The translations under genes and the position numbers were made by a program. The notes under the pieces are model-generated. The model saw nothing but the letters and a program-made list of their open reading frames with translations. It was not told the origin of the DNA and ran no database searches. Shown one piece after another: positions 60,793 through 63,998 of a stretch of 64,000 bases of DNA; position 1 is the stretch's first letter; every line of letters starts with the position of its first letter. The stretch comes from Dehalococcoidia bacterium (GTDB lineage: Bacteria; Chloroflexota; Dehalococcoidia; Plut-88900), in assembly GCA_965249275.1 (NCBI GenBank), contig CBDFLQ010000006.1, positions 160,001-224,000 of the forward strand, written 5' to 3'.

Positions 60793-61920
60793 ATGCCCAA
60801 CGAAGTTGTTGACTTTGACTCCCTGGTCAAGGTCATAGAAACGATACATAAGGCCATCAGCCGGGACGGTCGTACCATCGGGGCCAACGAGACCCGCACC
60901 CGCAACACGCTCATCGATCCTCTGCTCCGCGCCCTCGGTTGGGACGATCCATCTGTGGTGACCCAAGAATATCTTGTGCGATACGGAGCGAAAGAGTTCG
61001 AATACGGCGTGGCGGACTATGCACTCCACCCGCTGGGTCAGCGCGCGAACCCCATAGCTTTTCTAGAAGCCAAACGAATGAAGGAGGATTTGACCGACGA
61101 GCACCGCAACCAGGTGTTTACCTATGTCCTAGACAAGGGGGGTAGCGTCCGGCAATTTGGTCTAACCAACGGCGACCGCTGGGAGTTCTACGAGCTCAAT
61201 GAAGACGAGCCTTGTAAGAAATTCGAGTTCTCCATCCACAAGCAGTCCGCATCGGACTGCACCGGCCTGCTTTTCAGCCATTTCCCGATGTTGAACAAAC
61301 CCCGAAACGAAGGAAACCTACAACAGGTTGAAGTCCTAATGCCTGCAATGCACAGGTCCAGTGCTCTCTCGCATGCGCCCGCTACTCACTATAGTACGTC
61401 AAACAGGTCAGCCGGTCATGTTGATGTGTACAAGATTCTGACTTGGTTCGGCGTTTCCTTTGCTATTTGGATCATCTTAGGCTGGATAGGCGGGGTTCTT
61501 GAGGCGGAGCCTGTCGAAGGTTTTTTCGCAACTTTGGGCTTGTTTGTCTCGGTATTCTTGCTTATTGCCCTGGCATTTCTCCTCTGGCGCATTTCTCCAT
61601 CTACTCTAAAATCGATTCTGAGTTTCCTACAACTGAAGCGACTGTTCGCACCAACAAGAGGAGACAGGCTCAAGACTTGGACTTTGGTAGTCGTGGCCAT
61701 AGTTGGCGGCTTCTTCGCCGGAGGGTTTCTCGGCAACTTTATAGGCTCGCTGTCGGCAAAGTCTGTAGTGTCTGCTTTGGAAATTCTGGGCCAGTTGACT
61801 ACAATTGTCCTAGTTACTGTTCTGCTCATTTCTTTTGGGGCGGGAATGGCACGTCGTTCCAGCAAGAGACGGCGGGAAGGTTGGAGGCCGCGGTCTTCCT
61901 ATCGAAAGCGGCGCTGGTAA
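60793..61920 (+). CDS. HsdR_N-like PD-(D/E)xK nuclease domain fused to about four transmembrane helices
   Basis: NETRTR..LIDPLL.ALGWD, ADYAL, FLEAKR, QVFTY and LTNGDRW motifs; hydrophobic C-terminal half; Arg-rich tail. Confidence 0.8.
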   Translation: MPNEVVDFDSLVKVIETIHKAISRDGRTIGANETRTRNTLIDPLLRALGWDDPSVVTQEYLVRYGAKEFEYGVADYALHPLGQRANPIAFLEAKRMKEDLTDEHRNQVFTYVLDKGGSVRQFGLTNGDRWEFYELNEDEPCKKFEFSIHKQSASDCTGLLFSHFPMLNKPRNEGNLQQVEVLMPAMHRSSALSHAPATHYSTSNRSAGHVDVYKILTWFGVSFAIWIILGWIGGVLEAEPVEGFFATLGLFVSVFLLIALAFLLWRISPSTLKSILSFLQLKRLFAPTRGDRLKTWTLVVVAIVGGFFAGGFLGNFIGSLSAKSVVSALEILGQLTTIVLVTVLLISFGAGMARRSSKRRREGWRPRSSYRKRRW

Positions 61921-61997
61921 GGCGAAAATCCCAAGAAGTCTTCGTACCGTGGCCCAGTAAGAGCCCACCCCCCACCCCCCCCAACCCCCTTAACCCT

Positions 61998-62077
61998 GTC
62001 ATTCCGGTCGCCGAGAGCCGGAATCCATCCCCAAGGGCGGGGCCGTTCACCCTGAGCCCCGTCGAAGGATCGAGCGG
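61998..62077 (+). repeat. REP cluster
   Basis: gtcattccggtcgccgagagccggaatcc and ccgttcaccctgagccccgtcgaaggatcgagcgg. Confidence 0.75.
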
Positions 62078-62175
62078 GATGTGGTGGCCCTGCACTGCCA
62101 ATCCGTCGCGTACTATCGCCCCCACCCACTTACCTCTCATCCATCCAACAATTCCCTCCCCTCCCCCTTGGTAAC

Positions 62176-62248
62176 GACATATCAGCCATGTTGCAAAGCA
62201 ACATGGCTGATATGTCAATGAAACAGGGCGGGTGGGTGGGAACCAATT
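62176..62248 (+). repeat. Perfect 19-bp hairpin plus GGGCGGGTGGG tail
   Basis: gacatatcagccatgttgc-aaa-gcaacatggctgatatgtc. Confidence 0.8.
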
Positions 62249-62364
62249 AAACGGGGTTGGGAGGGGCCCTACCCCCTCTCCCTCTGATATGAGAGGGTTG
62301 GGGCCGTAGGCTCGCTGAGGAGAGTGAGGGTGATTCCCCTCCTGGTAGGTGCGCCACCACCCCC

Positions 62365-62394
62365 TTGACCAAATCAAAACATTCGTGCTATATT
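62365..62394 (+). promoter_or_regulatory. Sigma70 promoter with degenerate SOS box
   Basis: TTGACC-18 nt-TATATT with a TGn extension; AAAC-ATTC-GTGC abuts the -10, the same layout as 18089-18118. Confidence 0.55.
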
Positions 62395-62452
62395 ACATCC
62401 CAGGCTTCGGCCACGTATGTCGAGCCTAATCAGGAAAGGATCAAGGAGTCCC

Positions 62453-63103
62453 ATGAGTCGCAACAGCCTAACCAGCACACGTCGTAACCGAGCGGTATGG
62501 GACCGCCCGGCAACCGGCACGCGCCTCCTCCTTAGGCCCCAACCCTACCCCGTGTCCCTCGGCAACACCATGAATCCACTGAGGATGACCCTAATAGCCA
62601 GCGCTCCCTCTCGGCCACCTTTCCCGCAGCGACAACTCGCCGCGGATGCCTGCGGGCTCCTCCCGCAGATGATTTCCCTCGGCTACCCTGGCCACCGTGC
62701 TAGCGGCTTCGCCGCGGATGCCCGCTTTCCCTCGCCGCGGATGATAACCCACGGCTCACACCCCCAGCGAGCTTGCCCCACGACCGTGGATGCCTGCGGC
62801 ATTGCGCCGCGGATGATTTCCCGCTCCGCCCTCATCGGCGTAGAAGCGGATGCCTGCGGCATTGCGCCGCGGATGATCTCCCGCTTCTCCCTCCTTGGCG
62901 TAGAAGCGGATGCCTGCGGCATTGCGCCGCGGATGATCTCCCACGTCCCGTCCCAGGCCGCAGAGGGAGCGCTGGCAACCCTCATCCTCACCTTGTCCCA
63001 GTCCCTTTCCCTCTGTCCATCTTCCTCCCGTAGGGGCGACTGGCCGGTCGCCCTGGGGACAGGAATCCCCACCCCCCTCCACCCACGAAAGGAGGCTGTC
63101 TAA
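62453..63103 (+). CDS. Hypothetical repeat-containing protein (ADACGIAPRMIS x5); coding status uncertain
   Basis: AAGGAG RBS before the ATG at 62453 and a promoter upstream; all repeat periods are multiples of 3. Confidence 0.4.
   Translation: MSRNSLTSTRRNRAVWDRPATGTRLLLRPQPYPVSLGNTMNPLRMTLIASAPSRPPFPQRQLAADACGLLPQMISLGYPGHRASGFAADARFPSPRMITHGSHPQRACPTTVDACGIAPRMISRSALIGVEADACGIAPRMISRFSLLGVEADACGIAPRMISHVPSQAAEGALATLILTLSQSLSLCPSSSRRGDWPVALGTGIPTPLHPRKEAV
62642..62942 (+). repeat. Array of five 37-nt hairpin repeats with 35/35/23/23-nt spacers
   Basis: Units start at 62642, 62714, 62786, 62846 and 62906; consensus GCGGATGC-CTGCGGC-N5-GCCGCGG-ATGATYTCCC. Confidence 0.9.
63030..63054 (+). 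repeat. GTAG-type REP hairpin
   Basis: gtaggggcgactggccggtcgccct. Confidence 0.7.
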
Positions 63104-63213
63104 CCTCCCACACTCCACAACCGAATATGAAACATCCGCCTTTGGCGGAGCCGCTTCAACAGGGCCAAAAACTTCACAACCTGGATGCGGGGGCGGTCCC
63201 CCACCCCTCACAT

Positions 63214-63244
63214 AAGAGAAAAGCGCCGACCCAATCGCCAGCGC
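63214..63244 (-). terminator. Probable intrinsic terminator of the LLM gene
   Basis: Minus strand gcgctggc-gattgg-gtcggcgc followed by ttttctctt. Confidence 0.5.
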
Positions 63245-63272
63245 TTTCCCTGCTCAAAGCGGAATATGCAGG

Positions 63273-63998
63273 TCAATTCCTGAAGTAAGGCATCACCTTC
63301 TCGGATATCTCCCTCATCATCCCCTTCTTGTCGATAATCGAGAACAGTACCGTGGAAACGTTGTCTATCCCGAGCGGCTGCAGCTTCTCGATCTGCTCCC
63401 CGATATCATCCGGAGTCCCCGACAACATGAATGTGTCGATCACTCGCGGCGACACAACCAGGGAGTGCGGTGCGTCCGTCAATTCGTGCTGGTACGGATC
63501 GAAGGCGTCATATACCGCTTTGATCTCCTCAACTATGCCCGGTTGCACCTCTTCCATCCGGTTCCGCAGGTCCTCGACCTCCGGGGTCTGTCGTCTCAAC
63601 AGCGACCTGTACATCTCACACGCACACGTTGCCGCATAGGAAGCCACTTCCCTCCGAGCCGCTTCCTTGGAAGGCGCAACGTAGATCATAGTACGCGCCC
63701 ATTTATCTATGTCGTCCAGCGACCTCCCCGCCTTCTCCGCCCCCTTCTCCATTACCTCCAGGCTCCACTTCAAGATCGTCGGATTCACGCCTATCAGGAT
63801 CGCTCCCTCCGCCAACTCCCCAGTCATCCGCAAAGACTTTGGCCCGACTGTTGCCATGTACACGGGAATCTGCCTGCGGCTCCACTCCGAGTGCATCATC
63901 GCACCGTCGTACTCCACTTCCTTGCCCGCCGTGTACCCCTTGAAGAACTCGATTACATTCCGAAATTCGTCCATCGACCGCGCCTTCATCCCCATCGT
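63273..63998 (-). CDS. LLM-class oxidoreductase (Mer-like), partial; 5' end lies beyond the window
   Basis: IPVYMATVGPKSLRMTGELAEG and LSGTPDDIGEQIEKL motifs. Confidence 0.85.
   Translation of the reverse strand, partial: TMGMKARSMDEFRNVIEFFKGYTAGKEVEYDGAMMHSEWSRRQIPVYMATVGPKSLRMTGELAEGAILIGVNPTILKWSLEVMEKGAEKAGRSLDDIDKWARTMIYVAPSKEAARREVASYAATCACEMYRSLLRRQTPEVEDLRNRMEEVQPGIVEEIKAVYDAFDPYQHELTDAPHSLVVSPRVIDTFMLSGTPDDIGEQIEKLQPLGIDNVSTVLFSIIDKKGMMREISEKVMPYFRN

Follow-up and report, generated by a model that had tools for sequence, protein, structure and literature searches.

A stretch of 64,000 nucleotides from a Dehalococcoidia bacterium (the window, hereafter, at its full length) contains a string of hairpin-bearing repeats that has the repeat-and-spacer look of a CRISPR array and at the same time lies inside an open reading frame. 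The question it raises is what exactly is being kept there: stored spacers, a peptide, a DNA element, or the fold of an RNA. A repeat search found five copies, beginning at positions 62642, 62714, 62786, 62846 and 62906, i.e. spaced at 72, 72, 60 and 60 nt, just as a preliminary description of the locus had reported, and the 60-nt period was also found by TRF. A 32-mer taken from the repeat, with at most one mismatch allowed, occurs three times, versus 0 expected from 100 shuffles. The stems named in that description are likewise present, namely CTGCGGG/CCCGCAG in unit 1, CTGCGGC/GCCGCGG in units 3-5 and, in unit 2, a degenerate form with C-G at pair 2, and the window units score 44.6-87.3 bits under a covariance model of the unit (R1). 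The structured tandem-hairpin repeat is therefore confirmed as real.

What this structure means can be judged only from many copies, and we assembled a set of 232 units comprising 68 distinct hairpin cores. Each unit, of 57-75 nt, folds into two hairpins, A and B, whose pairing is kept via compensatory changes. In hairpin A 94.3% of cells pair (63 distinct 29-mers), as do 94.1% of cells when both hairpins are considered (109 distinct 69-mers), with the outer stem of hairpin B reaching 99.8% in the latter set. Cells in which both partners have changed number 13 in hairpin A, against 5.6 in shuffles, and 66 in the two hairpins together, against 15.5, with none of 500 shuffles reaching either 13 or 66; these counts overstate the support, because much of the stem is invariant and the copies are kin. 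When the pairing partners within the 69-mers are slid, pairing drops to 26-59%. In addition, G-U or U-G cells exceed A-C or C-A cells by 137 to 17 (62 to 17 minus one fixed wobble pair), and so large an excess of wobble pairs over A-C mismatches points to the sense strand. Base pairing is thus what selection keeps, and it keeps it on the sense strand. The compensatory stem change first seen among the window units is borne out here by the excess of double-change cells, as well as by changes on both sides of the helix that closes the array (see below).

The sequences between the hairpins fared differently. Those of units 1 and 2 had been taken for unique 35-mer spacers, but they are conserved among paralogs and in other species. 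The 23-mers of the later units form the second hairpin. Both the 'spacer' of unit 2 and the 23-mers are conserved across 13 copies from five genomes.

The search of this and related genomes for the consensus, which the preliminary description had called for, returned homologous arrays in quantity. We examined 61 loci, found in all nine genomes of one Dehalococcoidia genus, of which 42 are of a long type, where a protein domain follows the array, and 19 of a short type. The unit pattern matches 9 of the 12 genomes of the order, that is the window genome and all eight others of its genus, and none of the three from other genera. Model R1 gives 33.9-94 bits, with most units above 40, in all five genomes of the genus that were sampled, whereas outside it R1 matches 14 of 146 genomes of the class, and these only weakly, at 22-32 bits, once or twice per genome and never in an array. 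One such outside match (G412, E = 2e-5) turned out to be a lone GC-rich stretch with no array. Thus no convincing family member was found beyond the genus, either with the pattern in three other genera or with R1 in the 146 genomes, and the array is one short-type member of a multicopy, genus-specific family. A genome has anywhere from two loci to at least 11, at sites that are non-syntenic within it. In the window genome all 10 pattern matches and all nine R1 matches fall in two arrays, and although the 10-mer GCCGCGGATG occurs 26 times in the genome, six of them within arrays, the unit itself occurs only inside arrays, so that the suspicion of a dispersed REP sub-repeat does not hold.

The window locus is syntenic in two other species. 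From promoter to array start it shares 92% identity with them, against at most 50% in the intergenic DNA alongside; being syntenic in three species, the locus has been inherited rather than recently moved. A nuclease-membrane gene at 60793-61920, which had been mentioned as a possible partner, is absent from both of these syntenic loci and from all other array loci fetched, and is thus not linked to the array. No recurrent neighbour is conserved beside the 19 loci for which 16-kb flanks were available, the neighbours being ordinary enzymes. An amidohydrolase family is found near six of these 19 loci, at varying distance, and a PLP decarboxylase near three.

The short type is an element with well-marked limits (Table 1), and the flanks outside 62365..62993 are unrelated among the 13 short-type copies, from five genomes, that were aligned. 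The promoter, leader hairpin and ribosome binding site (RBS) that had been placed upstream of the array are all three confirmed, by score, by covariation and by invariance, respectively. Promoter sites of that score number one, versus 0.3 expected, and the position is kept in 13 of the 13 short-type copies first aligned. The leader stem-loop covaries among the 13 copies, with pair types UA/CG/UG, AU/GU/GC and CG/UA, and the RBS and start codon found in these copies recur in all six short-type loci found later.

Table 1. Features of the short-type element in the window
Feature	Position	Strand	Basis or remark
Whole conserved short-type element, promoter to end of closing helix	62365..62993	+	Conservation limits in 13-copy alignment (5 genomes)
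Sigma-70-type promoter, TTGACC-18-TATATT, TG before -10	62365..62394	+	Score 10 of 12
Putative LexA-box-like site AAACATTCGTGC in promoter spacer	62377..62388	+	Predicted
5' leader stem-loop	62402..62427	+	RNAalifold on 13 copies
Shine-Dalgarno AAGGAG, 4-nt spacer, ATG; AGGAGTCCCATGAGTCGC	62443..62455	+	Invariant in 13/13 copies
Open frame of 216 codons crossing the array, ...ADACGIAPRMIS...	62453..63103	+	Stop in unconserved sequence
Outer helix, 5' side, UGAGGAUGA; pairs with 62982-62990	62570..62578	+	Predicted from minimum-free-energy fold only
Closing helix, 5' arm, GCCAGCGCTCCCTCT	62597..62611	+	15-nt inverted repeat
Five-unit array	62642..62951	+	Hairpin A in each unit (7-bp stem, 5-nt loop); hairpin B in 'spacer' of units 3-5
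Closing helix, 3' arm, AGAGGGAGCGCTGGC	62962..62976	+	Inverted repeat, fold and 19-locus comparison
Outer helix, 3' side, UCAUCCUCA; family conservation ends here	62982..62990	+	13-copy alignment and fold

Within the promoter spacer, rAAC-N4-GTrC stands at a fixed offset from the -35 element in 12 of the 13 short-type copies and is shifted by one base in the 13th, the sites having one or two mismatches to GAAC-N4-GTTC. The promoter of lexA itself carries GAACGCCCGTTC, which contains a GAAC-N4-GTTC box, and the recA promoter spacer carries GAACACATATCC. Compared with the lexA box, the site in the window is off at two of eight core positions, and 11.6% of random 42-nt windows of the genome do as well. 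An SOS-type promoter with an imperfect, putative LexA-box-like site is accordingly best described as plausible but unproven.

At the other end the short type is bounded by a long-range helix. The 15-nt inverted repeat that forms it is 100% complementary across 350 nt, and the 15-bp helix is retained in all 19 short-type loci, where two pairs are altered on both sides (U-A to C-G and C-G to U-A) and wobble intermediates can be seen. Long-type loci have a closing helix of 28 bp with loops of 289-558 nt, represented by 25 distinct arm pairs with compensatory changes at five positions. The bracketing sequences of the two types are unrelated, while their architecture is shared. For the predicted outer helix no covariation or compensatory change was seen by eye in the 13-copy alignment. 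Taken as a whole, positions 62395-63010 fold at -252.5 kcal/mol (z = -5.4).

Does the reading frame matter, then? The claim that it is kept open through the array stands, since it is open beyond the closing helix in 16 of the 19 short-type loci. In the remaining three (L073, L095 and L133) the frame is lost and the array retained; the first two, an orthologous pair with arrays of four and six units, have an ATG-started frame that stops 52 nt short of the array. Among the 55 loci that the pattern search found, units are spaced at 57, 60, 72, 75 or 120 nt, each divisible by three, and in loci found later with spacings of 67+71 or 56+58 it is the sums that are divisible by three. In the 42 long-type loci the array lies in frame, preceded by a conserved ATG and a disordered leader and followed by an all-helical domain of about 120 aa, and 39 of the 42 read without interruption from that ATG into the domain, crossing the array and a leader that comes in nine different lengths; by eye, most copies show no alternative start codon ahead of the domain. 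Together, the open frame, the intact long-type loci, the spacings and the invariant RBS and ATG indicate that the array is translated through, a real feature of the long type and a likely one of the short type, so that a protein product is possible.

Translation, however, is not the same as selection on the product. In the short-type leader pN/pS is 1.09 in frame versus 1.09 and 0.83 off frame, so that the dN/dS-type check proposed for this ORF gives in frame the same value as in one of the other frames. Variable columns of that leader are spread 24/27/24 over the three codon positions, and the entropy of the units, again by codon position, is 0.49/0.48/0.46. Conservation runs as far as the closing helix and not on to the stop codon, which lies 24-381 nt beyond the helix, the C-terminus being unconserved, and the compensatory stem changes swap residues on both sides (Cys/Arg, Arg/Gln, Ala/Thr). 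The short type is thus without amino-acid selection and the residues it encodes are unconserved. Moreover, two of the three frames are stop-free in most short-type arrays, and an open frame is therefore cheap.

The domain of the long type presents a different picture, with a pN/pS of 0.53 in frame versus 0.97 and 1.72 off frame (in 13 of the 42 loci). This domain is real, as its coding signature shows, but it is an orphan. Searches of Pfam, PHROGs and NCBIfam gave nothing above cut-off for a long-type protein (P0001) or for the window ORF. An AlphaFold model of P0001 built from 43 sequences has a mean pLDDT of 51.7, with the N-terminal 164 residues modelled as disordered, and the best match in a VIA wide search (Z 4.9) covers no more than a helical hairpin, which left the fold unassigned. 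In the Protein Atlas the best score for the domain was 0.85, with no family, and small-terminase-like clusters, at 0.75-0.78, were rejected as being at chance level. A profile of the domain run against 1.84 billion representatives retrieved 25 matches, all of them family members, a word-indexed search retrieved 88 clusters, none with a name or Pfam domain, and a single-protein search in 400 other genomes of the phylum retrieved none. Upstream of this domain, 88 distinct 60-nt units encode 80 distinct peptides, and both arms of the 28-bp helix are coding (..APAQEAVG.. in the 5' arm, ..TNRLLS.. in the 3' arm).

One may consider, first of all, that 62453-63103 is an ordinary gene, encoding a disordered repeat protein that is a truncated paralog of the long type, in which the hairpins would be secondary and serve translation tuning or changes in repeat number. 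The invariant RBS and ATG, the frame open past the array, the intact long-type loci, the spacings in multiples of three and the selection on the long-type domain would all fit, as would the disorder modelled for the N-terminus of P0001, which is what one expects of a repeat tail. One would not expect, on the other hand, a repeat protein whose short type lacks amino-acid selection, whose stem changes alter residues on both sides, whose long-type units specify nearly as many peptides as there are units, whose C-terminus is unconserved, and whose array outlives the frame in three loci, an open frame being cheap in any case; we regard such a gene as rather unlikely. Much less probable still is the precursor-peptide reading raised at the outset, that of a multi-core, RiPP-like precursor in which the recognition motif stays constant and the cores vary. 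Although there is an open frame with 20-residue, Cys-containing repeats, preceded by an RBS and ATG, the peptide is conserved no further than the RNA stem dictates, the leader has the pN/pS given above, the 'constant motif' changes along with the RNA stem, no gene recurs beside the loci, and the long-type repeats form the N-terminus of a larger protein.

It is also conceivable, if improbable, that selection or self-propagation acts at the level of DNA, be it as a selfish in-frame palindrome like the Rickettsia palindromic elements or PARCELs, as a MITE-like unit with an inverted repeat, or as an invertible or recombinogenic segment. The copies are many and non-syntenic within a genome, the array is bracketed by inverted repeats, the genome is full of REP-like hairpins, and the copies look mosaic by eye, which suggests recombination. 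Unit number also varies among the contigs of two DNA runs, where joints skip 68, 72 or 78 nt. These contigs show unit skips and repeats only and no strand-changing joint, an absence that says little because contigs drop rare forms, and orientation is identical in all 61 assembled loci, assemblies being likewise unable to show rare forms. Yet the excess of G-U over A-C cells points to one, transcribed strand, the conserved block extends beyond the inverted repeat to include the promoter, the 5' hairpin and the RBS, the two types have the same architecture with unrelated brackets, three species share the window locus in synteny, and the unit is never dispersed singly. As for a guide-RNA array of the CRISPR or TIGR kind with its effector encoded elsewhere, the layout of hairpin repeats and spacers behind a leader and promoter is all that recommends it, and it is the least credible of the readings: its 'spacers' are common to paralogs and species and are themselves base-paired, no neighbouring gene is conserved, Cas1 (PF01867) has 0 matches in the window genome, which is 87% complete, and an Rfam 15 covariance scan of 61800-63400 gave nothing above chance on the array (at best 21 bits, to a trypanosomatid snoRNA, E = 0.19). 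Elsewhere in that interval, the best Rfam matches are of miRNA models to a palindrome at 62176-62216.

Several known systems share some of these traits. PARCELs are also tandem in-ORF repeats with DNA dyad symmetry, variable in number, multicopy and shuffled, in ORFs without assigned function, but as described they are a 25-residue amphipathic protein motif, often of membrane-targeted proteins, in many clades, whereas in the array family it is pairing and not the peptide that is conserved, a long-range helix closes the array, and a single genus is involved. Rickettsia palindromic elements are short palindromes that have invaded both coding and noncoding sequence, with 85 of 728 within ORFs in the account given for R. 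felis (PMC1166351). They resemble our units as hairpin repeats tolerated in frame in genes, and also found outside genes, but differ in being dispersed single insertions at hundreds of sites, while the array units are only tandem, with loci numbering from two to at least 11 in a genome and always the same kind of promoter. GC-rich hairpins are also typical of REP/BIME clusters, and the window genome has 116 REP-like elements of the GTCATTCC...GGAATC kind; unlike these, the array hairpins have one orientation, a fixed period and a dedicated promoter, and are never dispersed. The coding palindromes of Nematomorpha mitochondria are long inverted repeats with both arms coding, as in the 28-bp helix of the long type, though they are organellar, belong to animals, and consist of perfect long palindromes, not of a helix that encloses an array of hairpins. 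CsrB/RsmZ sponge sRNAs, stand-alone transcripts of many similar hairpins, are the natural model for a multivalent decoy. In contrast to them, the array has an RBS and an open frame running through it and resides in a genome where CsrA was not found (PF02599, 0 matches in the 87%-complete window genome). Base pairing takes up part of the GGA in the conserved GGAUGC, and in GCGGAUGCC the GCGG pairs with the CCGC of the preceding unit, leaving AUG alone as linker, while the loops vary freely.

We therefore think it reasonably probable that the array is the core of a previously undescribed structured RNA module, in which the unit hairpins A and B and the long-range helix closing the string make up a working RNA fold that is translated through; no description of such a tandem-hairpin element was found in the literature. 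We infer its function as an RNA from these patterns. Each 57-75-nt unit contributes a GC-rich hairpin A and a hairpin B, the whole string being shut by the long helix, and the short type is a free-standing element some 0.6 kb long that has a promoter, 5' stem-loop and RBS/ATG to itself and ends at the closing helix. The fold may offer a binding protein a multivalent platform, either as decoy or as scaffold, or alternatively may control the stability and translation of its own transcript. Passage of ribosomes from the invariant RBS might then serve the RNA, by aiding its folding or protecting transcription, rather than yield a useful protein. Transcription of the array is perhaps repressed by LexA, and the orphan protein of the long type is perhaps the partner of the RNA.

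A more specific scheme, which we put forward as a speculation with a minor share of our confidence, is a genus-private RNA-protein system: a damage-inducible tandem-double-hairpin scaffold would be bound by, or would control, the orphan helical protein, whose own mRNA carries such an array in frame, and the short-type loci would act as decoys in trans or be cleaved at the 15-28-bp helix to give hairpin RNAs some 60 nt long. A helix of 15-28 bp is a natural substrate for RNase III. If this scheme is true, it would represent a new class of repeat-built regulatory RNA, translated while working as RNA, and if the LexA link is true, uncultured Dehalococcoidia would have in this family a multicopy SOS branch specific to their lineage.

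The family gives a phylum in which few RNA families have been described a large and well-supported structured RNA, with about 30 covarying or conserved pairs per pair of array units, plus the long-range helix. It is also an unusually clear case of one stretch constrained at once by base pairing and by having to remain open to ribosomes, in which two settings weigh pairing and coding differently and amino acids change so that stems survive. Annotators should be warned that at such loci a 'repeat protein' and the CRISPR-like call of a repeat finder may both be wrong. Finally, two contigs, neither with a readable strand, ends or expression level, hint weakly at transcription of the array: one of 207 nt, from a run guessed to be RNA, lies on 62614-62820 with two differences, and one of 90 nt, from a metatranscriptome, lies on 62819-62908 with six.

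The array in the window holds five copies of its unit, recovered by repeat search at spacings of 72, 72, 60 and 60 nt; TRF detected the 60-nt period, and a search with the 32-mer of units 3-5 gave three occurrences at one mismatch or fewer, against none in 100 shuffles. The stems, the degenerate second unit and the compensatory change that sets unit 1 apart from units 3-5 all match the sequence as the preliminary description gave them, as does the promoter, TTGACC-18-TATATT, with 10 of 12 positions matched and a TG ahead of the -10 element. A second array, with five full 60-nt units and a weaker sixth model match, lies on another contig of the same genome. A degenerate pattern of the unit had matches in nine of 12 genomes of the order, namely the window's own and all eight others of its genus, and in none of the three genomes from other genera. 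This pattern yielded 55 loci, and a covariance model of the unit added six more; the model scored 33.9-94 bits in the five genus genomes sampled, most units exceeding 40. Outside the genus, it gave only weak matches (22-32 bits), in 14 of the 146 further genomes sampled from the class; each of the 14 had one or two, never arranged as an array, and the best (G412) was one lone GC-rich stretch.

Positions of the array, its neighbours and related features
Feature	Location	Strand or detail
Nuclease-membrane gene	window 60793-61920	
REP-like hairpin	window 61998-62030	
Perfect palindrome	window 62176-62216	19-nt arms, 3-nt loop
Element under study	window 62365-62993	plus
Promoter	window 62365-62394	
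Closing helix (short type)	window 62597-62611	pairs with 62962-62976
207-nt contig	window 62614-62820	2 differences
Unit starts	window 62642, 62714, 62786, 62846, 62906	
90-nt contig	window 62819-62908	6 differences
Small hairpin repeat	window 63135-63160	
Second array	G000:C7:348531-348831	minus
lexA gene	G000:C6:159597	just ahead of window position 1
lexA promoter and box	L096 1437-1500	
Diverged short-type array (L137)	G010:C1:3111370-3111613	
320-aa ORF	L012 4802-5764	minus

These arrays occur in two settings. The long type (42 loci) runs from a promoter through a conserved ATG, a leader of nine different lengths among loci, an array of one to seven units and an Arg-rich linker into a conserved domain (..EIALLRSLTNRLLS..KWWPWR..GLID..) and an acidic tail. 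The short type, to which the window copy belongs, comprises 19 loci in seven of nine genomes; its conserved block, set in unrelated flanks, extends from the promoter to just beyond a long-range closing helix, and includes a 5' stem-loop that covaries, an invariant AGGAGTCCCATGAGTCGC and a 189-nt leader with long invariant blocks, followed by the array. Two loci from two sister species (L075 in G008 and L090 in G010) are syntenic with the window, their upstream hdrB-like gene being 93-94% identical and their downstream LLM-type oxidoreductase 88% identical to those of the window. Across the syntenic loci, identity within the element is 92% between the promoter and the first unit of the array, against 50% or less for the intergenic DNA on either side. 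The nuclease-membrane gene, whose possible link to the array had been raised earlier, is absent from both and from all other loci fetched; we place it outside the array system on this comparison, and it looks like a strain-specific insertion. It has a weak, sub-cut-off HSDR_N match (22.6 vs 25.1 bits), and contig C5 holds two of its paralogs, both distant (39% and 35% identity).

Selection acts to preserve base pairing on the sense strand. In each 60-nt unit the 7-bp stem of hairpin A is paired in 98.2% of cells, while hairpin B, located in the supposed spacer, has an outer stem (CCGC/GCGG) that extends into the next unit and is 99.8% paired; 22 units have U-A there in place of C-G. The inner stem of hairpin B is 81% paired. 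Among 109 distinct units we counted 66 double-change cells, compared with 15.5 in shuffles (none of 500 reached 66), and pairing fell to 26-59% when partners were slid; hairpin A alone gave 13 against 5.6 in 63 distinct 29-mers, again equalled in none of 500 shuffles. G-U cells outnumbered A-C cells by 137 to 17, an excess that fits sense-strand RNA or single-stranded DNA. The excess does not suit a symmetric duplex site, nor does it suit an antisense RNA. A palindromic or mobile element acting at the DNA level seems to us quite improbable.

In every case a long-range helix brackets the array. That of the long type, 28 bp spanning 289-558 nt, shows G-U intermediates and, at five positions, compensatory changes, which also replace residues encoded by both arms. 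The 15-bp helix of the short type, unrelated to it in sequence, is retained at all 19 loci, with U-A changed to C-G in four, a U-G intermediate in another, and also C-G changed to U-A. The predicted fold of the window transcript has an energy of -252.5 kcal/mol (z = -5.4), and the closing helix is present in both its minimum-energy and centroid structures. Since the array copies are kin, the shuffle counts overstate independence. The stronger argument is that the two brackets share one architecture and yet are unrelated.

Some observations speak for a coding constraint. Frame 0 is free of stops through the array in 54 of the 55 pattern loci, the one exception being a counting artefact, whereas stops occur in frame 1 in 40 and in frame 2 in 18; unit spacings in these loci are all multiples of three, and in the six later loci spacings of 69, 67, 71, 57 or 56, 58 sum to multiples of three. 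Thus, the long type requires translation through the array. At 39 of its 42 loci the frame continues unbroken between the ATG and the domain. The domain, analysed on 13 of the 42, bears a coding signature (pN/pS 0.53 in frame vs 0.97 and 1.72 off frame) that is weak in the leader (0.73) and linker (0.76). The domain had no matches in Pfam, PHROG or NCBIfam, no assignable fold (mean pLDDT 51.7, best Z 4.9) and no relatives beyond the family among 1.84 billion representatives. The acidic tails, judged by eye, continue right through REP-like elements (..LTVIPEKSE..), and the C-terminal ends of these ORFs are therefore probably not real protein.

In the short type, the leader has a pN/pS of 1.09, indicating no amino-acid selection, and its variable sites are spread 24/27/24 over codon positions; both figures come from 11 copies, namely the first 13 aligned minus two with frameshifts. 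Unit entropy is likewise flat across codon positions. The stop lies 24-381 nt past the closing helix, in unconserved DNA, and at three loci, two of them an orthologous pair in two species, the frame is lost yet the array kept. We conclude that the invariant RBS probably does recruit ribosomes, but that in the window's type the peptide is not what selection maintains. A disordered repeat protein is on the whole unlikely. The precursor peptide proposed in the preliminary description, taken as a RiPP precursor, draws on the same open frame, and with the leader ratio, the flat entropy and no recurring neighbour gene it becomes highly improbable. The CRISPR/TIGR-like layout noted there fares worse still: the "spacers" are conserved and structured, a search of the window's own genome (87% complete) gave no match to Cas1, and no gene recurs beside the 19 loci with 16-kb flanks, so that a guide-RNA array is scarcely credible.

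The structured RNA array also suggested there is borne out by a conserved, sense-strand, modular fold with double changes far above shuffles, which has its own promoter and a frame that stays open. We favour the view that this fold would be what makes the transcript functional, either as a platform for multivalent binding or as a control element; acting as a decoy or scaffold for the protein of the long type would be a tentative and rather unlikely form of it, and the long helix may be a site of processing. A CsrA sponge in the usual sense is not supported: a search of the window's own genome (87% complete) gave no match to CsrA, and the GGA of the conserved GGAUGC is partly paired in the units. 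Dispersed REP sequences, the refuting case named in advance, are ruled out, as the units are confined to arrays and not dispersed in the genome. REP-like hairpins of another kind (GTCATTCC...GGAATC) have 116 copies genome-wide, among them the one at window 61998-62030. The array has no Rfam family match, and we found no description of it in the literature; the nearest published elements include PARCELs (PMC2996958), Rickettsia palindromic elements (PMC1166351) and coding palindromes in Nematomorpha (PMC6649704), which differ in defining features.

The promoter had been described as SOS-type. A LexA-box-like site (rAAC-N4-GTrC, 1-2 mismatches) does lie at a near-constant offset in short-type promoters (constant in 12 of 13, one base off in the 13th), but the window site, AAACATTCGTGC, has two mismatches, a level reached by 11.6% of random 42-nt windows. 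Several long-type promoters contain GTACACACGTTC, the recA promoter spacer contains GAACACATATCC, and the lexA promoter, TTGACA-17-TATTAT, is followed by a perfect GAACGCCCGTTC box (GAAC-N4-GTTC). SOS control of the array promoters is a candidate, a fair lead and not a finding. The exact box occurs 25 times in the genome. As for expression, the 207-nt contig comes from a run guessed to be RNA and the 90-nt contig from a metatranscriptome (contigs only in both); they are a weak hint of array expression in RNA-type runs, with DNA carry-over possible.

The diverged array at L137 retains hairpin A (CGCGGC-AUUGC-GCCGCG) between GCGGGCCUC and GUAAGAU in place of GCGGAUGCC and GGAUGAU, and the GGAUG motif is therefore dispensable but the stem is not. 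In L134 (G007) the short-type leader has gained 45 nt of REP-like sequence (CCCTCTCCC..GAGAGGG type), and the frame remains open; at L049 a REP-like insertion between the 5' arm and the array breaks the frame. A small hairpin repeat, (G/A)AACATCCGCC...GGCGG, has 26 copies in the genome; in the window it makes up the terminator-like site for the convergent LLM oxidoreductase gene, and in short-type loci L044, L046, L047, L072 and L088 an inserted copy separates the 5' hairpin from the RBS. The 320-aa ORF directly downstream of the long-type gene of the window's own genome (L012) resembles, by eye only, an integrase-type (IS481-like) transposase; L045, the syntenic locus in G005, lacks this ORF, which makes it a recent insertion. 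The perfect palindrome about 150 nt upstream of the window's array promoter probably exists in multiple copies in the community, because summed contig depth there is ~1,040-2,120 in two DNA runs, compared with 27-55 in the lowest neighbouring bins; a different perfect palindrome occupies the corresponding place upstream of the long-type locus L012.
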